Assembly (NCBI GenBank): GCA_963734095.1
Contig: CAVTGK010000040.1
Span: 162,492-226,491, forward strand
Reading direction: 5' to 3'
Length of the DNA stretch: 64,000 nt
Origin: an uncultured Acidobacteriota bacterium
Lineage (GTDB): Bacteria; Acidobacteriota; Vicinamibacteria; Vicinamibacterales; UBA2999
Shown: positions 2,515 through 44,478 of the stretch, one piece after another
Layout: each line of letters opens with the position of its first letter
Numbering within the stretch: position 1 is the stretch's first letter
Translations under genes and position numbers: made by a program
Notes under the pieces: model-generated
Seen by the model: the letters and a program-made list of their open reading frames with translations, nothing else
Told to the model about the DNA's origin: nothing
Databases searched by the model: none

Positions 2515-3762
2515 ATGCGCGAAGGACTGATGCAACAAACGGATTCGAAACAGTCCGAGAAAGACTACCTGCGTCGCTCCGCCGGCGGTGAATGGGAGGC
2601 GCTCAAGCCGTTCCCGCCGCCGGGCCAGCTCGCCAGCGAGGCGCACGCCCAGTACCTGCTCGACTTTGCCGTGATGTTGCGCGTTCTGACGCCGACGGCC
2701 TCGGATCTCGTGCTCGATCTGGGTGCGGGTTCGTGCTGGGTGTCCGATTGGTTGCGGCGCTGCGGCGTCCGGACGGTTGCCCTCGATATTTCCTGGGACA
2801 TGCTGCGGTTGGGCGCTTCGCGCCTCGACGGTGCACGCGGCCTGGTCACCGGCGACATGGAAGACCTGCCGTTCGCCGACCGCACGTTCTCAAAGGCGTG
2901 CTGTCTGAATGCCTTCCACCACATTCCCGACACAGCGCGCGCACTACGCGAGATCAAACGAGTCCTGACGCCCGACGGCGTGGTGCTGTTCTCGGAGCCT
3001 GGAGTCGGCCATGCCAACCACCCGACGTCTCTGGCGGCAACCCGCAACTACGGGGTGCTCGAAAACGAGATCCTGATCGACGAGTTCATGGATGCTTGCC
3101 TGGCCGCTGGCTTCGTCGATGTGCGACTCCATCCCATCGCACACATCATTCCGCTGTTCGAGATGCAGCAGCAACAGTGGCGGGATTGGCGCCGCTTCAC
3201 GGCGAGCCAGCGTCCGTTCCGGGCGCTCGACAAGATGTGGCGAGCGGCGCTGGAAGTGGTCGGGCTCGGCAAGAAGCAGCTGCTCTTCGAAGAAGCATTC
3301 GCCATTCGGCTGCTGCGCGAGATGCAGCCAGTCATCGAGCAGCATCCGGTGGTGACGGCGCACAGGACGTCTTTCGTCAAGCCCACCCTCCGCGCCGACG
3401 GCGCGCGGATAGAACTGCTGGACCCGCCATCGTCTGTCGCGGCAGGCCGTGAGGTCGTGCTGCGCGTCCGCCTGGCCAACGTCGGCAACACGCGGTGGGA
3501 GACGTCACCAGGGGGAGGACAGGTGCGACTGGGCGTGCAACTGCTGACGCCCGACGGCACGGTGGTCACTCGCGACTACTCACGCCACGACTTGCCGGCG
3601 CCAATCGATCCTGGCGGCCGCTGTGAGCTGAGGCTGCAGATTGCGCCGCCACCCGACATGGCAGGGTATCAGCTGAAGATCGATCTCGTGCGGGAAGGTG
3701 TGTCGTGGTTCGAGCTGGCGGGGTCGGAACCGGCGGTGTATCAGGTGCGACAGGTGCGATAG
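2515..3762 (+). CDS. Class I SAM-dependent methyltransferase with C-terminal Ig-like/NBR1-like domain
   Basis: VLDLGAGSCW (motif I) and DLPFADRTFSKACCLNAFHH (Methyltransf_11-like). The last codons (YQVRQVR*) are encoded by the first GGTGCGA words of the downstream repeat. Confidence 0.8.
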   Translation: MREGLMQQTDSKQSEKDYLRRSAGGEWEALKPFPPPGQLASEAHAQYLLDFAVMLRVLTPTASDLVLDLGAGSCWVSDWLRRCGVRTVALDISWDMLRLGASRLDGARGLVTGDMEDLPFADRTFSKACCLNAFHHIPDTARALREIKRVLTPDGVVLFSEPGVGHANHPTSLAATRNYGVLENEILIDEFMDACLAAGFVDVRLHPIAHIIPLFEMQQQQWRDWRRFTASQRPFRALDKMWRAALEVVGLGKKQLLFEEAFAIRLLREMQPVIEQHPVVTAHRTSFVKPTLRADGARIELLDPPSSVAAGREVVLRVRLANVGNTRWETSPGGGQVRLGVQLLTPDGTVVTRDYSRHDLPAPIDPGGRCELRLQIAPPPDMAGYQLKIDLVREGVSWFELAGSEPAVYQVRQVR

Positions 3763-3825
3763 GTGCTGGGGTGCGACGGGTGCGGTGCGGTGCACGGGTG
3801 CACGGGTGCACAGGTGCGGGTGCAC
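3742..3825. repeat. Degenerate tandem GGTGCR / GGGTGCAC words
   Basis: caggtgcgacaggtgcgataggtgctggggtgcgacgggtgcggtgcggtgcacgggtgcacgggtgcacaggtgcgggtgcac. Confidence 0.7.
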
Positions 3826-3830
3826 CGTGC

Positions 3831-3902
3831 AATCACTCAATCACCCAATGCAATCACCCAATCACCCAATCACCCAATCACCCAATCACCCAATCACCCA
3901 AT
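3831..3902. repeat. Tandem 8-bp repeat AATCACCC (6 perfect copies at 3852-3899 plus degenerate copies)
   Basis: Read directly. Only partly complementary (GGGTG core) to the 3742-3825 array. The + strand ORFs 3698..3987 (HPITQSPN...) are just translations of this repeat. Confidence 0.9.
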
Positions 3903-3976: not shown

Positions 3977-6906
3977 CTAGAAAATAAACCGGAAGCCGAC
4001 GCGCGCGGTAAACGGCGCCAGAATCAACGTCGGCTTCAGGTAGCTCAAACCCGTCGCGCGGCCGATCGTTTCGGACGCGTGGCTGTTGGTGATGTTGAAG
4101 AGATCCAGGTACGCACGGATGCGAGTCCGACTGTTCAGCGTGATTGTCTTCTCCGTGCGCACGTCGAATACCCAGATGTTGTCTTCTCGATTGGCGTCAG
4201 CCGGCTCGGCATAGGCGGTCTGGCGATCGCCCGTGCCGCTGGTCGCAATCAGGTCGGGGCGCGAAACGGGATTGGCGGCGGCCGTCGTCGAAATGACCAC
4301 CGTGCGGGCAAAGTTGACACCCGACTGATGGCGCAGGACAGGAGAGAGCCGGATTCCCCACGGGGCCTCGTAGCTGCCTATTGCCTTGAGCCCCCACGTC
4401 GAGCGGTCCTGCACGCCAGGCATGTTCGGGTTGTTTGGGAACAGATCGTTCGGGAAGTTGGTGAGCATCGTGTAGCCGCCACCAACTTGCGCCGACCACT
4501 TGTTGGCGAAGCGCTTCGTGGTCGAGACCTCGATGGTCTTGTAGCGGCCATACCGCGGCACGTTCATGACAACCTGGTCGGCCGGGAAGAGGGTGTTGGC
4601 ATTTGCCGCCGGCAAACCCAACATCCTGATGATTTTATCGTCGGCGGTCCCAGCCCTGCCGTCGACACCAATATCGGTGAAGTCGAACGGCACCGTGAAC
4701 ACTTCCGGCCCGCGACCTGGCTGAAAGGTGTCGATCAGGTCGTCTTCGGTCTTGTAGACGAACCCGGCTCTCGCGCCCATAGAGTCATTCAGCTGGCGCT
4801 CGAACCAGACCGCTGCTTCGTGCGAGTACGGCGCCTTGATGTTCGGATCGACACGGATCGCGCCTTCGAGCGCGGCCGTGACAAACGTGGTCTCTTCGCC
4901 TGGCTGCCAGCGCTTGTCGCCCGCGATGCACCCGGCGCACGCTAGTTGGTCATTCCAGTTCCACGTGGAGGACTTACTGGCGATATTCGCGTTGCCGCTG
5001 GCTGGCACGCTGACGCCCGGGTTGTGCCAGTAGAGGCCGTAGTTGGCCTTCACGACCGTCCTCCCGTCGCCGCTCAGATCGTAGATGAAACCCACGCGCG
5101 GCGCGACCTGGTTCCACGTGAAGAGGTCCGTCTGCGGGAAGGTCTTGGCGTCCACCGATGCGCGGCCAACGGTCGCGCCGAGCTGCTGCTGCTCCGGCAA
5201 CCAGCCCTTGTAGTAGTCATAGCGGACGCCGCCATTGATCGTGACACGCCCGACCTGCCACGTGTCGTTGATGAAGAAGCCGATCTGATCGAGCGCCGCG
5301 CGGGACGTGAGGGCGCCGTTGTCGTTGTCCTTCAGGCTGCCGACGCTCGTTGCCGTGGGCAGACCGAAGATCACCTGCGTCGAGTTGCCGTTGTTGTAGA
5401 CCTGTTCGATATTGCTTGTGCCGCCGCGGCGCGAGAGGAAGCCTTCCCACGACTGCTCCTTCAGCAGCTCGCCGCCCATCTTGAACGTGTGGCTGCCCTT
5501 GGCGGTATCGAGAAAGTAGGTCGCGGCGCCCGTCCACTGCTTGCGGTCGCGATCGAGCTGCTGGCGCCTGATGCGCACCTTCAGAGATCAGCTGGCCCGT
5601 GTCGTGCCAGAAGAAGTTGTCAGGGCTGTTGGTGATGAGCGGGAAGTAGTACCCGAAGTCACCGTAGCGTGCTTCGAGATAAAGCTTGTCGGTGAGCGTC
5701 CCGTTCCATTCGGCCTTGTAGACCCAGCTGCCCGAGTCCTGCGCGAACGTCTGCTCGGGAGACAGGTAGCTGTAGGTCGCGAACGGCAGCCGATTCGGCT
5801 GTTCCTTCTGACCCCACTGGTAGTAGCCGATGATCTTGTGGTTCTGGTTCAGCTGATAGGTCCCCTTCACGACCGGGTTCCACAGCTTGGTGTCGAACGT
5901 CTTATCGAATTGGAAGTTCGGCTGCGCGACTGCATTGAATTGCTGCCGGAAAGTGCCGAAGTACCAGAGCTTGTCCCGCTTGATCGGTCCGCCGGCGTTG
6001 ATGTCGTGGTCGTAATAGCGCTCGATCTCGTTGCTGTGCGCCCGGATGGCATTGCTGCCATTGGTGCCGTTGAAGGCGGTCGGCGACGTGTAGTCGCTCG
6101 GGCAAGTTCGAGCCCTGCAGGGAGCTGTTGTACCAGTCGAGATGGTACTCGCCGAAGAACTGATTGGCGCCCGAGCGCGCGATGAACTGCGACTGCACGC
6201 CGGGGTTCGGCATCTCGGCCGACTGGCCCGATGTGCCGATAAACGCCTCCTCGAGCGACGCGTAATCGAAATAGAAACCGGCACCGCCTGTGCCTTCTGT
6301 CGTGTTGATACCTTCGATGAGCACACGTACCTGGCCGTTGAAGCCATAGGCGGTATAGCCGCTTTGCGTGCCGGCTCGGTTGCCGCCCACATCGACGCGA
6401 GCCATTGCCACCGATGGCGTGATCGCCAACAGGGCCCACATGTCGCGAGCGTTGGGAATCGACTGCAGTTGTTCGAGCTTGAAGTTCTGCTGAATACGAG
6501 TCGCGGACGTGTCGATGACGGGGGATTCACCCGTGACCGTGACCGTCTCTTGAAGTGTGGCGAGCACGAGCTCGATGTTGATGGTGGCCGTGAAGCCGAG
6601 TGTTATCAGAATGCCTTCCCGCTTCACACCGCTGAACCCGGCCAAGTCGTACGTCACGGTATAGGTGCCGGGCGGCACTGCCGGGAATCGATAGTTGCCG
6701 GTCTCGGAGCTGACCGTCGTCTGCGCTCCGAGCATCGACGGGCTGGTCGCAGTCACGGTCACGCCAGGGAGCACCGCGCCCTGCGCATCGGTGACGCGAC
6801 CTTGAATCGTGCCGGTGCTACTGGCACCACCGCCCTGCGCATAGGCAGGCGCGGCGACCGCGAGAGTCAGCGCGGCGATCAGCAATCCGCCAAGACAACG
6901 CTTCAT
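3977..6906 (-). pseudogene. TonB-dependent receptor with N-terminal CarboxypepD_reg domain, copy 1; two frame disruptions (about 6100 and about 5580)
   Basis: Three ORF pieces join colinearly into one receptor: 5902..6906 (signal peptide, GTIQGRVTDAQGAVLPGVTVTA), 5217..6530 and 3977..5578 (ends ..ARVGFRFIF*). The span is 2930 nt, not a multiple of 3. Confidence 0.85.
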
Positions 6907-7127
6907 TCGTCATCCTCCATGTCCTGTGGGGACGACCCGGGGGGGCCTTGTCCCAGACATACCGCCTCGTGCAACACAAACGAACGAGCCCGTTCGCGGA
7001 GTGAAACGAACGTCGAACGGACCAAGCGACGACGACTAACGCAGAGCGGGGACCGATGGCAGTCAGTCATACCGCCAGCAACGGTCACAGCCCAGTTCCG
7101 AGGGTGAAATTACCTGGATCGCGGCTG

Positions 7128-7157
7128 AATCTACAGGAAAGAGGGACGGGGACGCAA
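7128..7157 (-). promoter_or_regulatory. Putative sigma70-type promoter TTGCGT-N18-TAGATT for receptor copy 1
   Basis: Hexamers and spacing are conserved at the equivalent position upstream of copy 2 (10581-10610). It lies about 215 nt upstream of the start codon. Confidence 0.4.
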
Positions 7158-7445: not shown

Positions 7446-10351
7446 CTACCAGAGGAACCGGAACCCGAGCCTGGTGGTGAACGGTGCCAGGATGTTCGCG
7501 GGCCGCAGGAACGTCGTCCCGTCGTGTCGCGTGATCGTCTCCGACGCGTGACTGTTGGTGATGTTGAAGAAGTCGATGAACCCGCGAATCGCGCATGCGG
7601 CTCGTCAAGTTCAGCGTCTTCTCAGCGCGAACGTCGAAGACCCAGATGTTGTCCTCCGGCGGGCGCTGGCGCCTCGGCGTAGTACGTCGTTGCTGGAAGC
7701 GTCAGAGCCAAATGGCGTCGGCCGCGTTGCCCGGCACCGCTGATCTGACGCGCGAACTGGACGCCCGATTGATGACGCAGGAACGGGCGATAATCTAATG
7801 CCCCACGGGCCATGTCGTAGGTGCCGGTTGCCTTGAAGCCCCAACCGGTCGCGGTCATAGACGCCGGCCTGATTCGGGTTCTGCGGGTATCCTTCTGGGG
7901 GAAGTGCGTGGTCCACGTATAACCGAAGCCGATCTGACCGGACCAGCGGTTCCCGTAGCGCTTGGTCACCGACGCCTCGACGGTCTTGAAGCGTCCGTAC
8001 GCGTCATCCGGAGGTTCATCACGACCGAGTTGGTGGCGGGAACGAGTGCCGGCCTGCGCGATGTTGGGCATGCCGAGCAACGTCACCGTGCTGGTCGTCG
8101 CCCGTGCCTGTACGATGCCATCGGCACCGACATCGGTGAAGGGGAACGGCACGGAGTACGCGCTCAGCGGGCGACCGGGCTGATACGTGACACGGTGCGA
8201 CGAGAGCAGGTCGTCTTCGGTCTTGTAGATGAAGCCCAGTTCGCACCCGATCGGTGCCGCAATCTGGCGCTCGAGGAACAGACTCGACCTCGTGCGAGTA
8301 ACGGCTGCGTTGATATTGGGATCGAGGCTGACAGCGACCCCTCAAGACGAGGCGACGTCGGCGTGCGCGCCTTCCTCACCAGGTTGCCACTGCCTGTCGC
8401 CGTTGGCGTCGTTCCAGGAGTAGGTACCGCCTTGCCGTGCGTGTTCGAATTGGCGTAGGCTGGAGACGGCGACGCCAGGGTTGTGCCAGAAGAAGCCGTA
8501 GTTCGCCTTTGATCACGGTCTTGCCATCGCCGGTGAGATCGTAGACGACACCGAGGCGCGGGGCGAAGACGTTCCACGTGAAGAAGCTTTGTCTCAGCGA
8601 AAGTATCCGCGGGCACGAGACACCGGCCCGACCGTAGCCGCCGAGCTGTTCCTGCTCTGGCAGCCAGCCGTGGTAGCGATCGTAGCGAACGCCGCCGCTC
8701 ATGCGTGAACCGACCGACAGCCCACGTGTCGTTGACGAACAAGTCCATCGTGGTTGAGCGCTGCGCGTGAGGTCAGATTGCCCTCGTCGTTGTCTTTCAT
8801 GCCGCCCACGTTGCTTCGCTGTCGGGAGACCAAACACCACCGTGCTTGGCGAAGCCGTTCGCGTATTGGTGCTCGATGTTGCCGCCGAAGCGCTGCGTGA
8901 GAAGCCTTCCCACGACTGCTCACGTGAGCATTTCGCCCCGAACTTGAGCGTGTGGCTCCCCTTCGTCGGTGTCGAGGAACATCGTGGCGGCGCTGGTCAA
9001 CTGCTTGCGGTCGCGGTCGAGTTGCCATCGGCTGCTGCGCCCCGGTGAGGATCTGTAGGTCCGGTATCGCGCAGAACCAATACTGCGTGTCGGTATTGCG
9101 ATCAGCGGGAAGTAGTAGCCAAAATCGCCGTAGCGCGCCTCGAGATAGAGCTTGTCGCTGAGCGTGCCGTTCCACTCGGCCTTGTACACCCAACTACTCG
9201 ACTTCTGAGCGAGAGTCGGCCCAGCGTCAGGTAGCTGTACGTGGCAAAGGGCAGCCGGTTGGGTTGCTCCTTCGTGCCCCCATTGGTAGTAACCAATGAT
9301 CTTGTGGTTCTGGTTCAACTGGTAAGTGCCCTTGACGACGGGATTCCAGAGCTTGGTGTCGAACGTCTGTTCGAAATCGAACTGCGGCTGCGCCACGGCA
9401 TTGAACTGCGTGCCGGATAGGTTCCGAACCACCACAGCTTGTCGGCCTTGATCGGACCACCGGCGTTGATCGCCGTGTCGTAGTAGCGATCGATCTCATT
9501 GCTGGCCCTTACGGTATGCGCCCGTCGTTGATGCACATCGTCGCGGAATGTTCGAAGCCTGCAGGGCGTTGTTGTACCAGTCAAGGTAGTACTCGCCGTT
9601 GAACTGATTACCGCCTGACTTGGTGATGAACTGGCTCTGCACACCAGGATTCGGCATCTCGGCCGACTGGCCGAGCGTGCCGAGAAACACTTCTTCGACC
9701 GAGGAGTAGTCGAAATAGAAGCCGGCGGCGCCGGTGCCTTCAGTCGTGTTGATGCCTTCGATGAGCACACGCACCTGGCCGGTAAAGCCATACGCCGTGT
9801 AGGGGGTCTGCGTCCCAGCGCGGTTGCCGCCGACATCGATACGCCTCATCGCCACGCCGGGGGACACCGCGAGGAGCGACCACATGTCGCGGCCGTTCGG
9901 GATCGACTGCAGCTGGTCGAGCTTGAAGTTTGCTGAACGACGCGGTCGCCGATGTGTCGATGACTGGCGATTCGCCGGTCACCGTGACGGTTTCCTGCAA
10001 CGTCGCGAGCGCGAGCTCGACGTTGATGTTCGCGGTGAAGCCGAGAGAAATGATGATGCCCTCACGCCTCACCGCGTTGAATCCGGTCAGCTCATACGTG
10101 AGCGTGTAGGTGCCGGGAGGGACTGCCGGGAACCGGTAGTTTCCGGTCTCGGAAGTGACCGTGGTCTGCGCGCCGAGCATCGCCGGACTCGTCGCGGTGA
10201 TGGTCACGCCGGGCAGCACCGCGCCCTGCGCATCGATGACCCGACCCTGAATCGTGCCGGTGCTGCTGGCACCACCGCCCTGCGCGTACGCAGGCGCGGC
10301 TATCGCGAGACTGAGCACGGCGATCAGCAAACTGCCTAAGCAACGCTTCAT
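7446..10351 (-). pseudogene. TonB-dependent receptor, copy 2 (tandem paralog); at least 8 frame disruptions
   Basis: N-terminus (9740..10351) is about 85% identical to copy 1. The remaining homology is scattered over ORFs 9496..9885, 9315..9836, 8920..9435, 9102..9296, 8699..9193, 8376..8840, 8164..8748 and 7622..8152. The C-terminal ..RLGFRFLW* stop is at 7446. Confidence 0.85.
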
Positions 10352-10580
10352 GCCTCAACCTCCATGTCCTGTGGGGACGACCCGGGGGGTCCAATCCCAG
10401 AACAACCGCCACATGCAACACAAAACGAGAGTCGTTCGGAGCAGCAGGCAAAGCGACATGCGCCGAACGGGAGCGCCGCCGACGACGAAGAACGCACGAG
10501 CGGGGACGACGACAGTCAGTCATACCGTCGGCAACGGTCACAACCCACTTCCGAGGGTGAACTTGCCTGAATCGGTGGCG

Positions 10581-10610
10581 AATCTACAGGAAACAGGGAC
10601 GGAGACGCAA
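10581..10610 (-). promoter_or_regulatory. Putative promoter TTGCGT-N18-TAGATT for receptor copy 2
   Basis: Same hexamers and spacing as 7128-7157. Confidence 0.4.
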
Positions 10611-10699: not shown

Positions 10700-10806
10700 T
10701 CGGCCGGTGGCCGGCGGCCGGGTAGTTTCCAGTTGCCAGTTACCAGTTCAAAGGGACTGGCCAACTGACAACTGACCGGAGGCCGGAGCCCTGCTGCCGG
10801 CCACCG
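10700..10806. repeat. Word hairpin (CCAGTT / AACTGG words, outer GGCCGG stem) downstream of eamA
   Basis: cggccggtggccggcggccgggtagtttccagttgccagttaccagttc-aaaggg-actggccaactgacaactgaccgg...gccggccaccg. Confidence 0.8.
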
Positions 10807-10820: not shown

Positions 10821-11726
10821 TCACACCGCGGGGTTCAGTCTCGTCACCGCGATTCCGCTCAGGATCAGCGCCGCGCCGAGGAGCTGTTGGCCGGTAATCC
10901 GCTCGCCAAGCCAGACGGCCGCCACGACCATGGCAACGATGGGTGTGAGATTGCTGTAGACCGCAGTCCGCGCGCTGCCGATCTCCTGTACCGCGGTGTA
11001 CCAAATCATGTACGCGAGAGCGAGCGCCAGCAGCGAGGACGCCGCCATCAACAGCCAACTCAGTGCTGAGATACGAGCCCAGTCGGTGGTGATGAGCGAA
11101 GGGAACGCCCCGATGCCGTAGAGGACGGCGCCGATCATCATCGCCCAACCCGTGACGACGAGCGGCGAGTGTCGCTTGAGCATCGGCTGTGCAGCCACCG
11201 AGTAGAGCGACCAGCACAGCATTCCGCAGAACACCAGAAGATCACCCACAAAGGTTGCGGCCGACAGCTCCGCCCGGTGACCGACGAGCGCGTAGATTCC
11301 AGCGAGTGACAACGCAGCGCCGCCCCACCGGGCCGCCGTGAGACGTTCATGCCCGGCAACGGACGACATGATCGCCACCGCCACTGGCGTGCATCCGAAC
11401 ATCAGTGCACTGTTCGCGACGCTCGTTCGCGCGAGGCCAGCGAGGAAAAACAATTGATAGAGAACCGTGCCGACGAGCGCGAGCATGACCAGAGTTGCCC
11501 ACTCGCGACGAGTCAGGCGCGGTTGGGGAGGTCGTTCGCCGGCGGCGGACTGGCGCTGGTGTCGTAGCATCGCGACCAGAAACACCGCGCCTGCCAGCAC
11601 GAGCCGCATGGCGTTGAACGAGACCTCGGGGAAGTCCCGAAGCGCGTATTTGATGGCGGAGAAGTTGGCGCCCCAGATGCCGACCATCAGGAGCAGCAGG
11701 AGGTCGAGACGGGAAAAGCGGCCCAT
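10821..11726 (-). CDS. EamA/DMT-family transporter
   Basis: 301 aa with 10 predicted TM segments. The N-terminus ..LLLMVGIWGANFSAIKYAL.. is typical of the EamA family. Confidence 0.8.
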   Translation of the reverse strand: MGRFSRLDLLLLLMVGIWGANFSAIKYALRDFPEVSFNAMRLVLAGAVFLVAMLRHQRQSAAGERPPQPRLTRREWATLVMLALVGTVLYQLFFLAGLARTSVANSALMFGCTPVAVAIMSSVAGHERLTAARWGGAALSLAGIYALVGHRAELSAATFVGDLLVFCGMLCWSLYSVAAQPMLKRHSPLVVTGWAMMIGAVLYGIGAFPSLITTDWARISALSWLLMAASSLLALALAYMIWYTAVQEIGSARTAVYSNLTPIVAMVVAAVWLGERITGQQLLGAALILSGIAVTRLNPAV

Positions 11727-11781: not shown

Positions 11782-11871
11782 GTGACCAGTTCGACCGCAA
11801 CCTCGACTCTTTGAACTGGTCACTGGCAACTGGAAACTAGCCGGCCGCTGGCTACCGGCCACTGGCCACCG
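11782..11871. repeat. Word hairpin (CCAGTT family) upstream of eamA
   Basis: gtgaccagttc-N20-gaactggtcac, then actggcaactggaaactagccggccgc... Positions 11813-11848 are the reverse complement of 10714-10749 with 2 mismatches in 36. Confidence 0.8.
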
Positions 11872-11878
11872 GCGTGAG

Positions 11879-13878: not shown

Positions 13879-14850
13879 AGCACTCCACAAAGCATTGGGC
13901 GAGGGCGCTGCTCCTCGCGACCGCAGGCCTGGGCATGGCATTCTCGGGTAGTTGGCTGGAAGTTGCCCGCGCACAGGGCTCTTCAACTAGTGCGCAGGAG
14001 AAGGCCACAAATCTTCAGGTCCGCGGTTGACGTCGTGTCGCTGAACGTGACGGTGGTTGACGGCCAGAATCGCTATGTCACGGATCTCACTGAGCAAGAG
14101 TTTTCGGTCTTCGAAGACGGTCTCAAGCAGGAGCTGACCTTCTTCAACCGAACGAGCCTGCCGATTGCGTTGTCCCTGCTCATCGACACGAGCGCGAGCA
14201 TGGAAAGCCGGCTGGCAATGGCGCAGGAGGCCGCCGTCGGGTTCGCTCGACGATTGCGACCGCAGGACCTGGCACAGGTCGTCGACTTCGACAGCCGCGT
14301 AGAGATCGCTCAGGGATTTACGAACAACGTGCCCGACTTGGAGAAAGCGATTCGTGGCACCACCGCAGGCGGGTCGACCTCGCTGCACAACGCGCTCTAC
14401 ATCTCGATGAAAGAACTGGCCAAGATCAAGGCGAAGAGCCTCGAAGACGTCAGGCGGCGTGCGATCGTGGTGCTGTCGGATGGCGAAGACACCTCGAGCC
14501 TGGTGAGCTGGGAAGAAGTGATGGATCTGGCGAAGCGATCCGAGACCGCCGTCTATACGATTGGCTTGCAGTCCAAGGACGGCGCGCAGTCGAAGGGCTT
14601 CCGTGAAGCGGAGTACGTTCTCCGCCAGTTCGCGCAGGAGACGGGAGGCCGCGCGTACTTTCCCGAGAAGCTCGACGATCTGAAGGACGTCTACCAACAG
14701 ATCGCCGACGAGCTCTCGAGCCAATACTCGATGGGTTATGCGTCGAAGAATTTTCGTCGCGACGGCGGCTGGCGACGGATTAGTGTTCAGGTCGCGCGGC
14801 CCAATATCGTCGCCCGCACGAAGCGCGGGTACTACGCGGCCGCCTACTAG
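13875..14850 (+). pseudogene. VWA-domain protein (second copy), frame disruption near 14000
   Basis: Signal-peptide frame starts at ATG 13875 (MKHSTKHWARALLLATAGLGMAFS..), ATGA-coupled to the previous gene. It stops after 44 codons. The body is ORF 13963..14850 (FRSAVDVVSLNVTVVD..LLIDTSASM..). Confidence 0.75.
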
Positions 14851-14852
14851 GC

Positions 14853-14970
14853 GGAGTTACAAGTTACAAGTTCACAAGTTACAAACCGCTGGGCCGATCC
14901 ACTCGCGCTCCAGGAGCAGCTCTGACCGAAAACTTGGCAACTCAACTTTGAACTTGTAACTTGTAACTTC
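14853..14970. repeat. Word hairpin H1 (GTTACAA words)
   Basis: ggagttacaagttacaagttcacaagttacaaacc-loop-aacttggcaactcaactttgaacttgtaacttgtaacttc. Ends 4 nt before the next start codon. Confidence 0.85.
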
Positions 14971-14974
14971 ACGA

Positions 14975-15808
14975 ATGTTCGTCTTCCCCCTTCTCCTCTA
15001 CGTCCTCTCCCTGGTCGCGTACGCGATTCACTTTGCGCGCCGCACGCCATCTGCTGGACGTGCCGCAACGGCGTTGCTGGTAGCGGGCGCCTTGGCGCAC
15101 ACGTTCGCCATCGGCATGCAGACGATGGAGGCCGGGCATGTGCCGTTTGCAGGGACGACGCAGGCGATTTCGACGTTTGTGTGGCTGCTCGCACTCGCGT
15201 ATCTGTACATCGAGGTGACGACCGACGAGCGTGGCCTGGGCGTCTTCATTCTCACCATCATTGTCGCGCTTCAGATTCTTCCCGCCGTTCGGGGAGCCCA
15301 AGTCGAGCCGCAATCTCCAGTGCTGGCCCACCCCCTGTTTTGGACCCACGTTGCAGCACTACTGGGCGCCTATGCGAGTTTCGGGCTGGCAGCCGTGATT
15401 GGTATCACCTACCTGCTGCAGTTCAAGGAAATAAAGGCCAAGCACCTGGTGTTCTTCTTTGAGCGGCTACCCTCGCTGCAAGCGCTCGACGTCATGAACT
15501 CGCGAACAGTCTTCATCGGCTGGCTGCTGCTGACGCTCGGCCTCGGTGCGGGTGCGCTGTGGGTTGCCGAAGCGGTGGCGTTGGCGCCGGCCGATCCGCG
15601 CGTGCAGGCAATGTCCCTTCGCGATCCCAAGATCTCGGTCGCGCTCATGACATGGGCGGTCTACACGTTTCAGCTCGTTGCTCGCCGGGTGATCGGCTGG
15701 CGCGGTCGGCCGGCGGCGTATCTCGCGGCGGCAGGGTTCGCGATCGTCCTGCTCAACTTCGTGCTGGTCAGTTACTTCCTGACCGAAAGCCACAATTTCG
15801 GGGCCTGA
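14975..15808 (+). CDS. HemX-like / CcsA-family cytochrome c assembly membrane protein
   Basis: 277 aa polytopic membrane protein immediately upstream of hemA, as in hemAXCDBL-type clusters. No clear WWD heme-handling motif is seen. Confidence 0.65.
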   Translation: MFVFPLLLYVLSLVAYAIHFARRTPSAGRAATALLVAGALAHTFAIGMQTMEAGHVPFAGTTQAISTFVWLLALAYLYIEVTTDERGLGVFILTIIVALQILPAVRGAQVEPQSPVLAHPLFWTHVAALLGAYASFGLAAVIGITYLLQFKEIKAKHLVFFFERLPSLQALDVMNSRTVFIGWLLLTLGLGAGALWVAEAVALAPADPRVQAMSLRDPKISVALMTWAVYTFQLVARRVIGWRGRPAAYLAAAGFAIVLLNFVLVSYFLTESHNFGA

Positions 15809-15809
15809 G

Positions 15810-17096
15810 GTGCATCTCCTTCTGGTCGGTGCCAGTCATCGCACGGCATCGGTTGACTTGCGCGAGCGGCTCGATTTCAGCAGCCGCGGTCTCGAAGACG
15901 CGGTACGCGCCGTCATCGGCCGGCAATCCGCCGCGGAAGCCGTGGTCGTTTCGACTTGCAATCGGGCCGAGCTCTACGTCGCGTGCCACGATCCAAAGTC
16001 GACCATCATCGACCTGCAAACGTTCTTTTCCGAGTTCCACCGCATACCGCTCGAGCAGATTCGGCCGCACCTGTATGCACTGCAGGATCACGATGCGGTG
16101 CGTCACCTGTTCCGCGTCGCCTCTGGTCTCGACTCGCTGGTCGTCGGCGAGCCTCAAATCCTGGGGCAAGTGAAGGACGCGTTTGCGACCGCCTCGCAGG
16201 TTCACAGTGCCGGGCCGCTTCTCAACCGACTGTTCCACTGGTCGTTCGGCGTCGGCAAGCGGGTCCGCTCGGAAACCGGGCTGGCCGAGGGCGCCGTCTC
16301 GGTGAGCTTCGCGGCAGTCAACCTGGCGCGAAAAATCTTCGGGAGTCTGGCGGGCCGCAAGGTGCTCGTGATTGGCGCCGGCGAGATGGGCCGGCTGACC
16401 GCGGTGCATCTCAAAGCGCAAGGCGTCGAATCGGTCACGATCACCAGCCGAACGCTCGCGCACGCGCAAGATCTCGCGGATGACATCGGGGCCGCAGTCA
16501 CGCCGTGGGATACGCTGCAGCCGTCGCTTCTCGACTCGGACATCGTCATCACGGTGACGGGCTCGCCGATACCGATTCTGTCGAAGTCGCAGGTCAAGGA
16601 AGCGATGCCGGCCAGCCGCTCGCGTCCGCTGTTTCTGATCGACATCGCCGTCCCTCGGGACGTCGACCCGCGCGCAGGCGAACTCGAGCAGGTGTTCCTC
16701 TATAACATCGACGACCTCCAGTCCATCGTCCGCGAGAACCTGGAGCGGCGCGGCGTTGAAGTCGGTCGCGCGGATCAAATCATCGACGAAGAGGTGCTCA
16801 AGTTCACGAACTGGCAACGATCACGCGATGCCGTACCGACGATCGTGGCGCTGCGTCAGCACTTCGAGGGGATTCGCAAGGCCGAACTGGAGCGGCTCGA
16901 GCCAAAGCTTGCGGCGTTGCCGCCGGAGGCGCGCGCGCGCGTCGACGAGATCACACGGTTGATGGTCGAGAAGCTCCTGCTCCAGCCGACCGAGCAGCTG
17001 AAGAACGCGGGTGATGCGCATCTCGTGTCACAGTATGCGGCGGCGCTCAGCCGACTGTTTGGGCTCGAGGACAAATCAGAGGACCGGTCGGAGTGA
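15810..17096 (+). CDS. hemA: Glutamyl-tRNA reductase
   Basis: 428 aa with GTG start. ..STCNRAELY..GEPQILGQVK..VIGAGEMG.. Confidence 0.9.
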   Translation: MHLLLVGASHRTASVDLRERLDFSSRGLEDAVRAVIGRQSAAEAVVVSTCNRAELYVACHDPKSTIIDLQTFFSEFHRIPLEQIRPHLYALQDHDAVRHLFRVASGLDSLVVGEPQILGQVKDAFATASQVHSAGPLLNRLFHWSFGVGKRVRSETGLAEGAVSVSFAAVNLARKIFGSLAGRKVLVIGAGEMGRLTAVHLKAQGVESVTITSRTLAHAQDLADDIGAAVTPWDTLQPSLLDSDIVITVTGSPIPILSKSQVKEAMPASRSRPLFLIDIAVPRDVDPRAGELEQVFLYNIDDLQSIVRENLERRGVEVGRADQIIDEEVLKFTNWQRSRDAVPTIVALRQHFEGIRKAELERLEPKLAALPPEARARVDEITRLMVEKLLLQPTEQLKNAGDAHLVSQYAAALSRLFGLEDKSEDRSE

Positions 17097-17102
17097 CGGG
17101 AC

Positions 17103-17170
17103 AGTTACAAGTTACAAGTTCAAAGTTGAGTTTGGGAGTTTGTAACTTGGAACTTGTAACTTGTAACTTC
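17103..17170. repeat. Word hairpin H2 (GTTACAA words), inverted copy of H1
   Basis: Positions 17103-17132 are the perfect reverse complement of 14939-14968 (30 nt). Ends 5 nt before the hemC ATG. Confidence 0.85.
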
Positions 17171-17175
17171 CGCCA

Positions 17176-18123
17176 ATGACCCTCATCCGAATCGGCACCC
17201 GCGGGAGTGCGCTCGCCCTCTGGCAAGCTCGCACGGTCGGGAAGCTCCTCGAAGAACAAGGCGCGCAGACCGAAATCGTCGCGATTCGAACCTCGGGGGA
17301 TGAGGGCTCGGGCCCACCTGACGCTCCCGGGACCAACATCAAGCGGATGTTCGTGAAGGAGATCGAGGAAGCGCTGATCGACGGCCGGGTCGACGTTGCC
17401 GTGCACAGCAGCAAGGATCTGCCCGCGATACTGCCGGAGGCGTTGACCATCGGCGCAGCGCTCGAACGCGAGGATCCGCGAGATGTGTTGCTCATGCGCG
17501 ACGGTTCGACGACGCGCGACTGGCCCACGGTCGTGCGCGCGCTCGGCAAGAGTCCGGCAATCGGTACGACGAGCGTGCGACGGATCGCGCAACTGCGCAC
17601 CATCGTTCCACACGCGACGTTCACGGCCCTGCGCGGCAACGTGGACACGCGCCTTCGGAAGCTCGATGCTGGTGAGTGCACCGCGATTGTTCTCGCAAGC
17701 GCCGGGGTCACTCGCCTTGGCCTCGCGGCGCGGATTTCTGCGTATCTGCCGATCGAGACCTGCGTGCCGGCGCCTGGTCAGGGGATTGTCGCTGTCCAGC
17801 TCCGCGTTGATGCTGACCGAGCGCTGCGATCGATCGTCTCCCGGATTTCTGACCCAGACGCCGAGGCGGCACTGACCGCTGAGCGTGCGGTCGTCCGCGC
17901 GTTGGGAGGCAATTGCCAGATGCCATTGGGGGCCATCGCCCGGATCGATGAGCAAGCGCTCGAGATGCTTGGGCTCGTCGCATCACTGGATGGTCGCACC
18001 GTCGTTCGCGCCTCGGTCCGTGGGAACCGCGGCGGCGCCGCAGCGGCGGGAGAAAAGCTCGCCGCCAGGCTGCTAGCCCAAGGTGCGGCGGCGATTCTCG
18101 AGGCCGCGCGAAACGAAAACTGA
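17176..18123 (+). CDS. hemC: Hydroxymethylbilane synthase (porphobilinogen deaminase)
   Basis: 315 aa. IRIGTRGSALALWQA..VHSSKDLP..RGNVDTRLRKL.. Confidence 0.9.
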   Translation: MTLIRIGTRGSALALWQARTVGKLLEEQGAQTEIVAIRTSGDEGSGPPDAPGTNIKRMFVKEIEEALIDGRVDVAVHSSKDLPAILPEALTIGAALEREDPRDVLLMRDGSTTRDWPTVVRALGKSPAIGTTSVRRIAQLRTIVPHATFTALRGNVDTRLRKLDAGECTAIVLASAGVTRLGLAARISAYLPIETCVPAPGQGIVAVQLRVDADRALRSIVSRISDPDAEAALTAERAVVRALGGNCQMPLGAIARIDEQALEMLGLVASLDGRTVVRASVRGNRGGAAAAGEKLAARLLAQGAAAILEAARNEN

Positions 18124-18227
18124 TTGGGAGAGGCCGCTGCGCGGACCGGCCGCCCTCCGGGCGGAGTGCCGAAGGCCGGCCCATCCGGGAAGCGGCCGAT
18201 CAGCGATCCCTCTAGTACAATCTGGCC

Positions 18228-19766: not shown

Positions 19767-20743
19767 AGCTCGAGCGACGGTTTCGACGCTTGCGCCGCAC
19801 GCCGGCGCTGCGTCGCCTGGTCCGCGAAACACGGTTGTCGGCGGATCAGTTCGTTTTGCCTCTTTTTGTCTGCGAAGGCGGCGGCGTTCGTCGTGAGGTG
19901 TCGTCGATGCCCGGCGTGTATCAATTGTCGGTGGACGAGGCCGTCACTGAGGCTGCTGCTGCGCGGAGTGACGGCGTCCCCGCGGTCTTGCTCTTCGGGC
20001 TGCCGAATGAGAAGGACGACGAGGGATCCGCGGCAGAGGATCCGGCCGGCCCCGTTCAACAAACCGTCCGGAGAATCCGCGATTCAGTCGCCGACATGGT
20101 CGTCATCACCGACGTCTGCCTTTGCGAGTACACGTCTCACGGGCATTGCGGAATCGTGGCTGATGGAGAGATCGTGAACGATGCCACGGTCGACCGACTC
20201 GTGCGCGCGGCGATCTCCCATGCCCGAGCCGGGGCCCATGTCGTCGCCCCGTCCGACATGATGGACGGACGTGTCGGGGCCATCCGGTCGGCGCTCGACG
20301 AGGCCGGATTCGACCAGGTCGCGATCATGAGCTACGCGGCAAAGTACTGCTCCGGGTTCTACGGACCGTTTCGTGAGGCGGCCGATTCGGCCCCGCAGTT
20401 CGGCGATCGCCGGAGCCACCAGATGGATACGGCCAACGTCGAAGAAGCGCTGCGGGAGGTGGCACAAGACATCGATGAGGGCGCTGATATCGTGATGGTC
20501 AAGCCGGCAATGCCGTACCTCGACGTGATTTGGCGCGTCCGCGAGCGATTCGGATATCCAACCGCAGCCTATCAGGTGAGCGGCGAGTACTCGATGATCA
20601 AAGCCGCCGCCCGCAACGGTTGGATCGATGAAGAGCGCGCGATGCTGGAGTCACTGACGGCCATTCATCGTGCGGGCGCGGAGATCATCATCACGTACTT
20701 TGCGCGCGAAGCGGCTCGGTGTGGTAAGAGGGCTAGGGCATAG
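19763..20743 (+). CDS. hemB: Porphobilinogen synthase (delta-aminolevulinate dehydratase)
   Basis: 326 aa. ..[27 protein letters not shown].. Confidence 0.9.
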
Positions 20744-20830
20744 GGCGTAGGGGCGTAGAGATGGGCCTAGGGGCTGTGCCCTGACGCCCTGGCCCTGCGC
20801 CCTGGCCCTGCGCCCTGCGCCCTGTGCCCT
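20727..20830. repeat. Word hairpin (GGGCRTA / GCCCTG words) filling the hemB-hemL gap
   Basis: agggctagggcatagggcgtaggggcgtagag...gccctgacgccctggccctgcgccctggccctgcgccctgcgccctgtgccct. Contains the hemB stop and abuts the hemL ATG. Confidence 0.85.
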
Positions 20831-22129
20831 ATGAAGAAACCCATCAAGTCAGCCAAGCTGTTTCAGCGAGCCAAGCAGGTCATTCCCGGCGGCGTCAACT
20901 CGCCAGTACGGGCGTTCAAAGCTGTCGGCGGTTCGCCGCATTTCATCGCGAAGGCTTCGGGCTCGCGAATCACAGACATCGACGGCAACTCGTTCATCGA
21001 CTATGTCGGGTCGTGGGGGCCGATGATCCACGGCCACGCGCCGCGTGGCCTCACCAGCCTACTGGCCCGAGTCGGCCGTTCGGGTACAAGCTTCGGCGCG
21101 CCGAGCCCGCTCGAAGTCGAGCTGGCGGAGCGGGTCCGCAAGCTCGTGCCCTCGATGGAACGCGTGCGCTTCGTCAGCTCGGGCACCGAGGCCACGATGA
21201 GCGCGGCCCGTGTCGCGCGCGCGGCGACGAATCGCGAGAAGATCATCAAGTTCGAGGGCTGCTACCACGGACACGCTGACGCGTTTCTCGTTCGGGCCGG
21301 TTCGGGCGCGCTGACGTTCGGCACACCAACAAGCCCTGGTGTTCCTGCGGGGGCTGTTGCGCCAACACTGCTCGCCAGCTTCAACGACCTCGCCTCGGTC
21401 GAGCAGCTGACCGAAGCAAATGCCGGAGAAATCGCCGCAATCATCGTCGAACCCGTAGCCGGCAACATGGGCACCGTGATCCCCCAACCGGGGTTTCTCG
21501 ACGGTCTCCGGTCGATTTGCGATCGAACGGGCGCGCTACTCATCTTTGACGAGGTGATGACCGGTTTCCGTCTCGCGCCCGGGGGCGCTCAGGCGTTGTT
21601 TGGCGTCCGCCCAGACCTCACGTGCCTCGGCAAGATCGTCGGTGGAGGGTTGCCGGTTGGCGCGTACGGTGGTCGCGCCGACCTCATGGATCTGGTGTCG
21701 CCGGCCGGCCCGGTCTATCAGGCCGGGACGCTCTCAGGGAACCCGCTGGCGATGGCAGCCGGACTATGGTCGCTGAAGCGCCTCACCGCCACGTTGTACC
21801 GGTCGCTCAGCGCGCGCACGTTCCGGCTGGCCTCGGGTCTGGCCGATGCGGCTCGCGATCGAGGAGTCCCGCTGCAGGTCAACGCCCTCGGATCGATGAT
21901 CACACCGTTCTTCACCAGCGAGCGAGTAACTGGATTCAGCACCGCGGTGACAGCTGACACTGCGGCCTTTGGCGTGTTCTTTCGAGCGATGTTGGAGAAC
22001 GGCGTGTATCTCCCACCATCGCAGTTCGAAGCCTGGTTCGTTTCCGCTGCCCACACGACGCGCGACATCGACGAGACGATCAGCGCAGCGCAGAGGGCAT
22101 TCACGAAAGTGCGAAAGGCGAAGTCGTAA
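20831..22129 (+). CDS. hemL: Glutamate-1-semialdehyde 2,1-aminomutase
   Basis: 432 aa. ..IPGGVNSPVRAF..GSWGPMI.GH..FDEVMTGFR.. Confidence 0.9.
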   Translation: MKKPIKSAKLFQRAKQVIPGGVNSPVRAFKAVGGSPHFIAKASGSRITDIDGNSFIDYVGSWGPMIHGHAPRGLTSLLARVGRSGTSFGAPSPLEVELAERVRKLVPSMERVRFVSSGTEATMSAARVARAATNREKIIKFEGCYHGHADAFLVRAGSGALTFGTPTSPGVPAGAVAPTLLASFNDLASVEQLTEANAGEIAAIIVEPVAGNMGTVIPQPGFLDGLRSICDRTGALLIFDEVMTGFRLAPGGAQALFGVRPDLTCLGKIVGGGLPVGAYGGRADLMDLVSPAGPVYQAGTLSGNPLAMAAGLWSLKRLTATLYRSLSARTFRLASGLADAARDRGVPLQVNALGSMITPFFTSERVTGFSTAVTADTAAFGVFFRAMLENGVYLPPSQFEAWFVSAAHTTRDIDETISAAQRAFTKVRKAKS

Positions 22130-22132
22130 CTA

Positions 22133-22298
22133 GGGTTCTTGAAGGAGGTTCTTGACGAAGGTTCTTCACGCAGGTTCGACGGAGGTTCTTCACCGGGGTT
22201 CTGCGAAGGTTCGTGACGGGGTTCTCGCGAGAACCTTCGTCAAGAACCATTGTGGAACCGTCGTGAAGAACCTCCGTCGAGAACCGTCGTTAAGAACC
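22133..22298. repeat. 166-bp palindrome built of 11-14-nt GGTTCTTSA words between convergent genes
   Basis: 8 left units containing GGTTCT/GGTTCG and 6 right units containing AGAACC/GGAACC. Symmetry centre is ctcgcgag at about 22228. Confidence 0.85.
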
Positions 22299-31295: not shown

Positions 31296-31388
31296 CAGGG
31301 CACAGGGCGCAGTGGCATAGGGCGGAGGGCGCGACAGGATTGAGGCCCAATCCCTCCTATGCCCTGCGCCCTGTGTCCTACGCCTGTC
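31296..31388. repeat. Word hairpin (GGGCRCA words) between pyrE and truA
   Basis: cagggcacagggcgcagtggcatagggcggagggcgcgac-aggattgaggcccaatccctcc-tatgccctgcgccctgtgtcctacgcctgtc. Confidence 0.85.
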
Positions 31389-33811: not shown

Positions 33812-33946
33812 ATCGCAGGGCACAGGGCAGGGGTACGGGCACAGGGCACAGGGAATAGGGCGTAGGGCATAGGGCGGGCTAGGGACAGGGACTGAGGGCC
33901 CTAATCCCTCCCCTATGCCCTGTGCCCTGCGCCCTCTGCCCTGTAC
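33801..33946. repeat. Word hairpin (GGGCRCA words), asymmetric (about 90-nt left arm, about 40-nt right arm)
   Basis: Shares the loop core tgagggccctaatccctcccctatgccctg with 31296-31388. Confidence 0.85.
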
Positions 33947-33961
33947 AGCTAAACTCCCCCC

Positions 33962-34759
33962 GTGCAGAAGCTGACCGTCACGGTCATCACGCGCAACGAA
34001 TCCCGGCACATCGCGGCCGCTCTCGAATCGGTCAACTGGGCGGACGAAATCATCGTGGTCGATTCGGAAAGCACCGACGACACGGTGGAGATTGCAGGCC
34101 GATACACGTCGCGCGTGGTTGTCCGGCCGTGGCCCGGCTACGTCGCGCAAAAGAACTTTGCCGCCGCGCAGGCCACCCACGACTGGATTCTGTCCCTCGA
34201 TGCAGATGAACGCGTGTCGGCCGGCCTCCGGGACGAAATTCGGCGGATGCTGGCCGAGCCAATGACGGCGGCGGGCTACCGCATCCCCCGCGTCACCTTT
34301 CATCTCGGGCGCTGGATTCGTTCGACCGACTGGTATCCCGACTACCAGCTCCGACTCTATGACCGCCGCCGCGCTCAATGGGCCGGACGCTATGTCCACG
34401 AATCAGTTCGCACCGACGGACACGTCGCAACCCTCCGAGGCGAGCTGCAGCATTACGCGTATCGCGACCTGGCGCATCATGTCGAAACGATGGATCGATA
34501 TACCGCGCTGGCCGCTCGTCAGATGTTCGAAGACGGCCGTCGCGCCAACTGGATCGACATTCTGGTGGTGCCCCGGCTGACGTTCTTTCGCAACTACATC
34601 CTGCGTGGTGGATTTCGCGACGGCATGGTTGGCCTCATCATCTCGGCAATGAACGCCTATTACGTCAGCGTCAAGTTTGCAAAGCTCTGGGAGCTGTGTT
34701 CGCCATCCACATCGACACCGCCCGCACATGGCGTGGCGGACAAAACCAGGTCCTCCTGA
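33962..34759 (+). CDS. Family 2 glycosyltransferase
   Basis: 265 aa with GTG start. ..VTVITRNESRHI..IIVVDSESTDDT..LSLDADER.. Confidence 0.8.
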   Translation: MQKLTVTVITRNESRHIAAALESVNWADEIIVVDSESTDDTVEIAGRYTSRVVVRPWPGYVAQKNFAAAQATHDWILSLDADERVSAGLRDEIRRMLAEPMTAAGYRIPRVTFHLGRWIRSTDWYPDYQLRLYDRRRAQWAGRYVHESVRTDGHVATLRGELQHYAYRDLAHHVETMDRYTALAARQMFEDGRRANWIDILVVPRLTFFRNYILRGGFRDGMVGLIISAMNAYYVSVKFAKLWELCSPSTSTPPAHGVADKTRSS

Positions 34760-42852: not shown

Positions 42853-42936
42853 AAGGTGCCTACGGTGCCTCGGTGCCTGGGGTGCCTAAGGTGCTGGTGC
42901 AAGAAGTGCGTTCGGTGCCTAAGGTGTATGAAGTGC
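42853..42936. repeat. GGTGCCT word array: left arm of a split hairpin
   Basis: aaggtgcctacggtgcctcggtgcctggggtgcctaaggtgctggtgcaagaagtgcgttcggtgcctaaggtgtatgaagtgc. About 70% reverse-complementary to 44375-44467. Confidence 0.8.
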
Positions 42937-43330
42937 AAACAAAACCCTGAGCCGGCTTGGGCGCTTCAGTTTTAACGAACGTCGCACCACCTGGACAGGC
43001 GCGATCCGAGCATGCCCACGGCCAGATAGCCAACGGTGGGCCATTTCCGCGAGGAATCCGAACGTTGAGGCCGATTCGATTCCTGCGTGGCTGACCATTC
43101 GACCAAAAGAGCCGGTCGCGCGACCGACTGGATCCAAAACCATCGTTACTGGACGTACTCAGTAATCGAATCGGTGACCTGACGCGAAAACGTCGCCGGC
43201 ACGGTCGAGAGCTGCTCGATACGCCGCTGATCGCCGGCAAACGTTTGCGCCGAGGCGTCTGTTTTCCCTCTTCGTGATGGCCGCGACGCGAGGAAGTACA
43301 CGCCCGGGAATATCGGCGTAGAATTGCGCC

Positions 43331-44467: not shown

Positions 44468-44478
44468 CTTACCCCTTT

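Follow-up and report, generated by a model that had tools for sequence, protein, structure and literature searches.

The hemX-like and hemA genes in the 64,000-nucleotide (nt) stretch of Acidobacteriota DNA analysed here (the window) are bounded by two hairpins, H1 and H2, which are probably opposite-orientation copies of a heptad-array repeat that resembles repetitive extragenic palindromic (REP) elements, and not a device specific to the hem cluster. H1 fills the gap between a von Willebrand factor A (VWA) domain gene and hemX, and H2 fills the gap between hemA and hemC. The features of this segment are as follows, with positions in the window and with the strand where one is assigned.

13963–14850, plus strand: VWA domain gene, upstream of H1 (gene annotation)
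14853–14970: H1, AGTTACA-word heptad hairpin filling the VWA/hemX gap, reverse in family terms
14855–14886, plus strand: left arm of H1, (AGTTACA)2-AGTTCAC-AAGTTACAAAC, period 7, 4.1 copies
14887–14938: centre of H1, 52 nt, not present in H2, G+C-rich, with a small internal stem
14939–14968, plus strand: right arm of H1, 30 nt, exact reverse complement of 17103–17132
14975–15808, plus strand: hemX-like gene (PF01578, cytochrome c assembly family)
15810–17096, plus strand: hemA, glutamyl-tRNA reductase (gene annotation)
17103–17170: H2, AGTTACA-word heptad hairpin filling the hemA/hemC gap, forward in family terms
17103–17132, plus strand: left arm of H2, (AGTTACA)2-AGTTCAAAGTTGAGTT, identical to the left arm of the family consensus (from the sequence)
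17138–17174, plus strand: right arm of H2, GTTTGTAACTTGGAACTTGTAACTTGTAACT, with a terminal TCCGCC clamp (from the sequence)
17176–18123, plus strand: hemC, porphobilinogen deaminase (gene annotation)

The enclosed genes had been called hemX-like and hemA in an earlier reading of the letters of the window (the sequence-only reading), and both calls are correct, the products being a PF01578 protein and a glutamyl-tRNA reductase.

Relationship between H1 and H2

A script-based comparison of positions 14939–14968 with the reverse complement of 17103–17132 gives 30 matches out of 30, and the exactness ends at both edges. The perfect 30-bp inverted repeat that was described as bounding hemX and hemA therefore survives re-inspection. 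In an inverted-repeat search, the 30-nt match extends to 39 nt at 90% identity. Over 32 nt, 78% of the left arm of H1 pairs with the right arm of H2, with a single indel that the sequence-only reading had also noted. When H1 is reverse-complemented, global alignment matches 67 of the 68 positions of H2, compared with 61 in the direct orientation (with the 52-nt centre of H1 gapped out). The inverted reading is preferred because of this difference, and the best description of H2 is H1 inverted and with a short loop, which agrees with the sequence-only reading that one is the reverse complement of the other.

Both elements also form hairpins, as claimed before. H1 has 20-nt perfect arms around a 74-nt spacer and an RNA fold of −50.2 kcal/mol (z −6.2), and H2 has 25-nt arms at 96% around a 16-nt loop and a fold of −34.9 kcal/mol (z −5.3). 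The two elements fit closely between the flanking codons: H1 begins 3 nt past the VWA stop codon (TAG, 14848–14850) and finishes 5 nt short of the hemX ATG (14975), and H2 begins 6 nt past the hemA stop codon (TGA, 17094–17096) and finishes 5 nt short of the hemC ATG (17176). The sequence GTTACAAGTT has eight matches in the 64 kb, every one in H1 or H2, where 0.00 are expected; a 15-mer search of the window that allowed up to two mismatches likewise returned eight matches against 0.01 expected. A scan of H1 and H2 for intrinsic terminators revealed no terminator-like site with a T-run, and a promoter scan of the same elements was also empty. Instead of the G+C-rich stem and U-run of an intrinsic terminator, the two elements have A+U-rich stems with CACGAAUG and CCGCCAAUG after them. 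Rfam 15 gives no match across the window at the gathering threshold.

The AGTTACA family and the heptad-array class

The 18-mer AGTTACAAGTTACAAGTT was used as a query against one genome per species, and the figures below refer to the matches listed. The query is found at six loci or more in the metagenome-assembled genome (MAG) MFD04850.bin.1.250, at four or more in MFD00962.bin.1.9, at two or more in MFD02840.bin.1.220, and in others besides. The G+C content of these MAGs is approximately 0.63, and many of the matches are hairpins at unrelated loci; at least four Acidobacteriota (Vicinamibacterales-like) MAGs carry AGTTACA hairpins at unrelated loci.

Alignment of ten complete members reveals a polar consensus, which consists of a GG(C)GGA clamp, the left arm (AGTTACA)n-AGTTCAAAGTTGAGTT, a loop of 5–75 nt, and the right arm GTTTGTAACTTG(G/T)AACTTGTAACTTGTAACT-(T)CCGCC. 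H2 aligns with the family in the forward direction, and H1 aligns with it only when reverse-complemented; H1 and H2 are therefore copies in opposite orientation. Idiosyncratic details, namely the TTGGAAC variant unit and CAAAGTTGAGTT, are common to different loci and genomes, which indicates copying from a master sequence and not independent slippage. The 30-mer of the H2 left arm recurs at an unrelated locus of another MAG (L002), and the H2 right arm with the TTGGAAC variant unit recurs at L029, L059, and L151. In the family alignment, 27 stem pairs are nearly invariant with no covariation, as expected for a repeat family and not for a conserved structured RNA. The family copies that were checked are all intergenic; the genes on either side are co-directional, and 0–25 nt separate the 3' arm from the next start codon. 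With regard to MITEs (miniature inverted-repeat transposable elements), no direct (target-site) duplication is present at the flanks of 12 complete copies. The family 26-mer has zero copies in viral contigs, and no gene of the REP-associated tyrosine transposase type (IS200/IS605-like Y1 transposase) was called in the hem neighbourhoods (genome pieces of 8–21 kb).

The AGTTACA word is one of many in the window. Tandem-repeat (TRF) and inverted-repeat scans identified approximately 20 intergenic sites in the 64 kb at which a tandem 7–8-nt word occurs, mostly followed by its reverse-complement array. Period 7 predominates, and at least eight different words are present: AGGGCNN (approximately seven sites), CAATCACC (three sites), GGTGCNN, GGTTCTT, GTTCCAG, CCAGTTN, AGTTCGG, and AGGCACN. 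Gaps of all three types (co-directional, convergent, and divergent) contain arrays, which often abut or enter the neighbouring stop and start codons; their growth seems to be limited only by coding constraint. Within the hem cluster, word-hairpin elements occupy four gaps (H1, H2, 20729–20830, and 22124–22298). Same-word sites are neighbours in four cases against 2.0 expected (p about 0.10).

Outside this lineage, tandem GTTACAA heptamers were seen in Bacteroidales, Chloroflexota, Gammaproteobacteria including Thiobacillus, cable bacteria, cyanobacteria, and Patescibacteria (among the matches listed, L001–L113), and they form hairpins in Thiobacillus (L004) and in a MAG labelled Streptomycetaceae (L053). 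This spread across phyla resembles that reported for TAACTGA arrays.

Turnover of the two gaps in relatives

Syntenic relatives were arranged by their HemA identity to the window: L151 (99%), L153 (94%), L152 (90%), L154–156 (88%), L157 (80%), L158/159 (78%), and L160 (77%); one HemA homologue is labelled Vicinamibacterales. In addition, L098 (MFD00962.bin.1.9) is the orthologous locus, which is collinear with the window and 96.2% identical over 8 kb; its H2 is identical, and its H1 differs by a 14-nt (two-unit) indel. The contents of the two gaps are as follows.

Window and L098 (HemA 99–100%): VWA/hemX, AGTTACA hairpin H1; hemA/hemC, AGTTACA hairpin H2
L151 (99%): VWA/hemX, CAGTTNN hairpin; hemA/hemC, AGTTACA hairpin with one additional heptad
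L153 (94%): VWA/hemX, CAGTTNN hairpin; hemA/hemC, GGTGCNN hairpin in a 178-nt gap
L152 (90%): VWA/hemX, CAGTTNN hairpin; hemA/hemC, GGTGCNN hairpin in a 210-nt gap
L154 (88%): VWA/hemX, AGTGCAA/AGTTCAA hairpin; hemA/hemC, 25-nt gap without a hairpin
L157 (80%): VWA/hemX, (AGTTCAA)4 hairpin; hemA and hemC overlap (ATGA)
L158 (78%): VWA/hemX, CAGTTNN hairpin; hemA and hemC overlap (ATGA)
L160 (77%): VWA/hemX, single AACTTGT arm; hemA and hemC overlap (ATGA)

H1 is carried by two genomes only, the window and L098, whereas H2 is confined to genomes with a nucleotide identity of at least 98.6%. In every genome compared, the VWA/hemX gap contains a heptad with an AGTT core and the inner motif AGTTCAAAG...CTTTGAACT. 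In the comparison with L151, which has 98.6% nucleotide identity, the coding flanks are 98–99% identical up to the VWA stop codon and from the hemX ATG onward, and only the hairpin of approximately 120 nt between them differs. At the hemA/hemC junction, H2 and its L151 counterpart differ by a 7-nt indel, which is one unit. Between the window and L151, intergenic DNA differs by 8.8% substitution and coding DNA by 2.3%, and it is in the hairpins that the large indels (7, 14, 32, 52, and 108 nt) lie; the hairpin after hemL measures 170 nt in the window and 69 nt in L151. Among 37 remoter metagenomic relatives (HemA 53–76%), hemC lies within approximately 20 nt of hemA in nearly all, and the closest of these (L114, 76%) carries a CCAGTTN hairpin in its hemX/hemA gap and a different array past hemA. 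The junction series therefore indicates that H2 is recent and H1 more recent still, and that the sharing of one word by the two gaps is limited to two near-identical genomes.

Proposed origin of the hairpin pair

In the explanation that we favour, H1 and H2 are copies of a dispersed non-coding repeat of approximately 70–120 nt. This repeat is one of many families of heptad-array hairpins in the lineage, imperfect palindromes with arms of tandem 7–8-nt words that colonise the intergenic gaps of these soil Acidobacteriota (Vicinamibacterales-like). Comparison of the genomes shows that the elements expand and contract by whole-unit slippage, can nest in each other's loops, sit in either orientation, and can be exchanged as complete cassettes whose boundaries fall exactly at a stop codon and the start codon after it. 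At the hemA/hemC junction, where the two genes ancestrally overlapped, a GGTGC-word hairpin had first opened a gap. The series of relatives then shows H2 entering this gap first and displacing the GGTGC-word hairpin, and H1 arriving later in the VWA/hemX gap, where it displaced the older CAGTTNN hairpin. On this reading, the 30-bp inverted repeat is a sign of recent common ancestry of two repeat copies and not of a hem-specific mechanism.

Template switching or gene conversion is the probable route of copying, with nearby quasi-palindromes as partners that have in common an AGTT core and, as inner motif, AGTTCAAAG. Each copy would most likely fold co-transcriptionally, on the hem transcript, into its own local stem-loop, which at most may act as a 3'-exonuclease barrier of the type known from REP elements and bacterial interspersed mosaic elements (BIMEs), or as a weak terminator, and which may also uncouple the translation of hemA and hemC.

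Alternative explanations

The position of the arrays raises the possibility, which we consider unlikely, that a periodic AACU/AGTT core on the sense strand in front of start codons recruits a sequence-periodic RNA- or DNA-binding factor, or the ribosome through protein S1, to control the translation of hemX and hemC, with the opposite arm as a masking strand. The (UGUAACU)n 3' arm ends 5–6 nt before the hemX and hemC starts with no Shine-Dalgarno sequence in between, and 0–25 nt before the start at other sites. The AGTT core is kept in the VWA/hemX gap of relatives at 77–100% while other positions change, and an exact TAACTGA heptamer is present in the right arm of the upstream hairpin of L151; the same idea was proposed for the TAACTGA arrays that precede Beggiatoaceae starts (PMC4679880). 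However, the eight or more unrelated words in one window would demand many factors, and arrays also lie in convergent gaps (3742–3902, 44387–44471, and 22124–22298), where there is no start codon. Moreover, short gaps push any filler near a start, and the family occurs in both orientations.

A long-range pairing of the two elements on the transcript is quite unlikely as an explanation of the pair. Here, an H1:H2 duplex of approximately 65 bp would close off hemX-hemA and either be cut by RNase III or compete as a fold with the local hairpins, which would give the segment its own stability or stoichiometry. The sequence-only reading had suggested both 5'/3' pairing and a choice between local and long-range folding, and the energetic part of this suggestion is borne out. 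The cross pairs H1 left:H2 right (−48.9 kcal/mol) and H1 right:H2 left (−50.3 kcal/mol) total −99 kcal/mol, compared with −35.9 and −33.4 kcal/mol (total −69) for the local arms, and the minimum-free-energy structure of a 2346-nt transcript adopts the H1:H2 cross pairs. Three other pairs of inverted arrays bracket genes in the window, one of them around a 23S rRNA intervening-sequence (IVS) protein gene, and these also have strong duplex potential.

The relatives do not conserve this pairing, and that part of the suggestion falls. A conserved long-range processing stem would have to be kept between the two gaps, but the pairing is absent at L151, which has CAGTTNN upstream, and the gap words are unrelated in L153 and L152 (94% and 90%), with CAGTTNN in one gap and GGTGCNN in the other; unrelated words at the two positions had been named in advance as grounds for refutation. 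The better energy of cross-pairing is expected without selection, because an imperfect palindrome that has been copied in inverted orientation will in any case pair better with the copy than within itself. In addition, local hairpins form first during transcription. The bracket around the hydrolase gene is not on one transcript, because it spans a divergent gene pair (as seen in L161, a 97% relative), and 24 junction hairpins of the hem cluster have no mRNA-strand bias of folding or of G.U pairs (sense better in 14, antisense in 10, p = 0.34). From the sequences compared, the H1:H2 pairing is apparently a very recent by-product of dispersed-repeat copies that landed in opposite orientation.

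The more general proposition that same-word inverted arrays (four cases in 64 kb, at EamA, hemX-hemA, the hydrolase, and the IVS-protein gene) bracket transcripts through duplexes that out-compete the local hairpins is similarly improbable. If it were true, the brackets would amount to a fast-evolving, repeat-driven re-cutting of operons for processing or stabilisation, and the periodic cores might be read by a factor that recognises a 7-nt period.

Independent evolution in place, in which both gaps drifted to one word by slippage and without copying, is very unlikely. Arrays do change by unit slippage, and AACTTGT units are also found in the upstream gap of L160 (77%) and in other phyla. However, H1 and H2 share non-repetitive details in both arms (CAAAGTTGAGTT; GTTTGTAACTTG-G/TG-AACTTG; the CCGCC clamp) that are seen at unrelated loci elsewhere, and the upstream gap was replaced wholesale within 1.4% nucleotide divergence. 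These shared idiosyncrasies largely refute the idea.

Least probable of all, with hardly any likelihood left to it, is the suggested recombinational inversion of hemX-hemA as a switch: the perfect repeats are 2.1 kb apart and their 30 bp is near the minimal length for homologous recombination, but the orientation is identical throughout the nine syntenic genomes, the two with the inverted repeat among them, no recombinase is among the genes called within 10 kb on either side in the relatives, and a flip would set two essential heme genes antisense to their cluster.

Copying of a dispersed repeat thus remains our preferred explanation, and the following observations weigh against it. The retention of the AGTT core in the VWA/hemX gap across the 77–100% clade could reflect a sequence-specific function and not descent alone. 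The advantage of cross-pairing over the local arms, approximately 30 kcal/mol in the predicted folds, may have a real effect on the transcript of the source strain. Neither the upstream gap of L151 nor the other family members contain a match to the 52-nt centre of H1 that could point to a donor. The counts of dispersal are lower bounds that come from other MAGs and include only the matches listed. No mobilising enzyme or mechanism was found for the AGTTACA family, and the evidence that same-word copies tend to be neighbours is no more than suggestive.

With respect to the regulation of heme genes, the pair carries little weight, being a recent accident of repeat turnover. Its wider value lies in a natural time series, from near-identical genomes to those at 77%, in which hairpins are born in a new gap, expand, are swapped, and nest. 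This touches on two open questions, the over-representation of heptamers in bacteria and the spread of REP-like elements without an obvious transposase, and an Acidobacteriota lineage with many word families side by side would be good ground on which to study both.

Other elements and genes of the window

Four further hairpins of the same general kind are relevant to the hem cluster and to the EamA gene.

10701–10806: CCAGTTN-word hairpin downstream of the EamA gene, inverted partner of 11809–11873
11809–11873: CCAGTTN-word array or hairpin upstream of the EamA gene, inverted partner of 10701–10806
20729–20830: AGGGCNN-word hairpin in the hemB/hemL gap, of the same class as H1 and H2, with a second hairpin nested in its loop in L151
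22124–22298: GGTTCTT-word hairpin (13-nt period) after hemL, of the same class, 108 nt shorter in L151

Past hemA, the gene order is hemC, cobA/hemD, hemB, and hemL. In the hemB/hemL gap of L151 (14936–15109 of that locus), a CTTCGTG-word hairpin is nested in the loop of an AGGGCNN hairpin, which indicates that loops serve as insertion sites for other word families. The motif CCCTCTAGTACAATC (window 18200–18227) lies approximately 7–12 nt 5' of the GTG start of the cobA/hemD fusion and is kept in the same gap down to the 78% relatives (L151–L158), while the remainder of the gap turns over. It looks like the −10 box (TACAAT) of a leaderless or short-leader transcript, and such a predicted box would split the hem cluster into separate units.

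AGGGCNN is the commonest word family in the window, with arrays at 372–409, 20729–20830, 31296–31379, 33803–33965, 37886–38002, and 63220–63286; their GGG runs with 4-nt spacers match the G-quadruplex motif on one strand, by motif only. The arrays at 20729–20752 and 33803–33811 reach into hemB and into the gene that ends at 33811, where they cover the final codons together with the stop codon, and two such arrays extend into the following start codon. Inspection of the window by eye suggested that 5' arms are G/T-rich without exception, but a wider set did not bear this out.

Three genes other than the hemX-hemA pair lie between inverted arrays. The EamA transporter gene (10821–11726, minus strand) is located between inverted hairpins of CCAGTTN plus CCGGCCN words. 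The distant arms of these differ between the window and L098 at two positions, both A-to-G on the sense strand of the gene, with G.U pairs retained. Its two flanks have the same word in the window and L151 (CCAGTTN) and in L160 at 77% (GAACGAA), and unrelated words in the relatives at 90, 80, and 78%.

The second gene (46358–46765) encodes a PF05635 protein, the four-helix-bundle 23S rRNA IVS protein, inside inverted arrays at window 46251–46940. The flanks consist of AGTTCGG/GTTCTGA words (46251–46369) and CAGAACT/CCGAACT words (46791–46940), with a predicted duplex of −160 kcal/mol compared with −77 kcal/mol for local folding. Genes for 23S rRNA IVS proteins classically sit inside a flanking stem, and the locus looks like an IVS-type cassette; its neighbours are a phosphodiesterase gene on one side and pyrK/pyrD-like genes on the other, so that it does not lie in rRNA.

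The third is the alpha/beta-hydrolase gene (43331–44251), which lies between GGTGCCT (42855–42935) and AGGCACN (44387–44471) arrays. This gene is accessory, being absent from near-identical MAGs. The 97% contig L161 has an intact divergent AraC/GyrI-like regulator 5' of the hydrolase, of which the window keeps only fragments (approximately 43022–43288).

Elsewhere, a 45-nt inverted repeat (93%) of the CACGAAG/CTTCGTG type occupies a convergent gap at 49720–49863, and its loop holds three copies of an 18-nt tandem repeat (GGAGTTCATCCTCCTGTG). A tandem duplication of approximately 3.4 kb (4083–7140 and 7552–10593) contains paralogous large outer-membrane genes (CarboxypepD_reg / OMP beta-barrel), the copies of which are approximately 77–79% identical. 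No tRNA or tmRNA gene that could be an insertion target is present in the window.

Comparison with known systems

REP elements and BIMEs are imperfect intergenic palindromes that occur in many copies with a consensus and in both orientations, also within operons, in Enterobacteria and Pseudomonas. Their transcripts form stem-loops that can stabilise the mRNA upstream, and their turnover is faster than that of genes. Like REP, BIME, and REPIN elements, the AGTTACA elements are intergenic imperfect palindromes (z −6.2 and −5.3 for H1 and H2) that are dispersed, have a consensus, and occur in both orientations. Unlike REP elements, the arms here consist of tandem 7–8-nt words that slip by the unit, many unrelated words are in use, and the elements measure 66–210 nt. 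Whereas REP arms are short (20–40 nt), G+C-rich, and non-tandem, the AGTTACA elements are 66–118 nt, A+T-rich, and made of tandem heptads.

The (GGGAATC)n/(GGGANTN)n arrays of Xanthomonas consist of intergenic heptamers with a conserved core and a highly variable number of units, and approximately 70 of 186 arrays occur in closely spaced convergent pairs, one array on each strand, which are able to fold into stem-loops or cruciforms (Rehm et al. 2015, PMC4692102). The arrays described here are likewise intergenic tandem heptamers with a conserved AGTT core and variable triplets in convergent opposite-strand pairs. However, a single G-rich quadruplex word is used in Xanthomonas, while at least eight words are used here, and AGTTACA is A+T-rich with one G per unit and no quadruplex. 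A further difference is the evidence here that a master sequence has been dispersed and that cassettes have been replaced.

The TAACTGA arrays of Beggiatoaceae, Cyanobacteria, and Bacteroidetes are intergenic and tandem and end a few nucleotides 5' of start codons without a Shine-Dalgarno sequence; 169 direct sets compare with one inverted set, a single orientation to the gene prevails, and no secondary structure is predicted (MacGregor 2015, PMC4679880). The AGTTACA family resembles these arrays and the cyanobacterial short tandemly repeated repetitive (STRR) heptamers in having an intergenic, tandem AACT-core heptamer near starts. (TGTAACT)n stops 5 nt before the hemX ATG and the hemC ATG, and the situation is similar at L002, L029, L096, L103, L059, and L067. 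In contrast to the TAACTGA arrays, each array here is paired with its own reverse complement and folds strongly.

Finally, the hemX-hemA segment resembles 23S rRNA IVS cassettes and the processing stems of rRNA operons in that it lies within long complementary flanks and an RNase III-type stem is possible; unlike in those systems, each flank is a complete hairpin, and the complementarity of the flanks is not conserved. No description of heptad hairpins in Acidobacteria, or of the AGTTACA family itself, was found in the literature searched, and the family mixes features of the REP elements, the Xanthomonas arrays, and the TAACTGA arrays.

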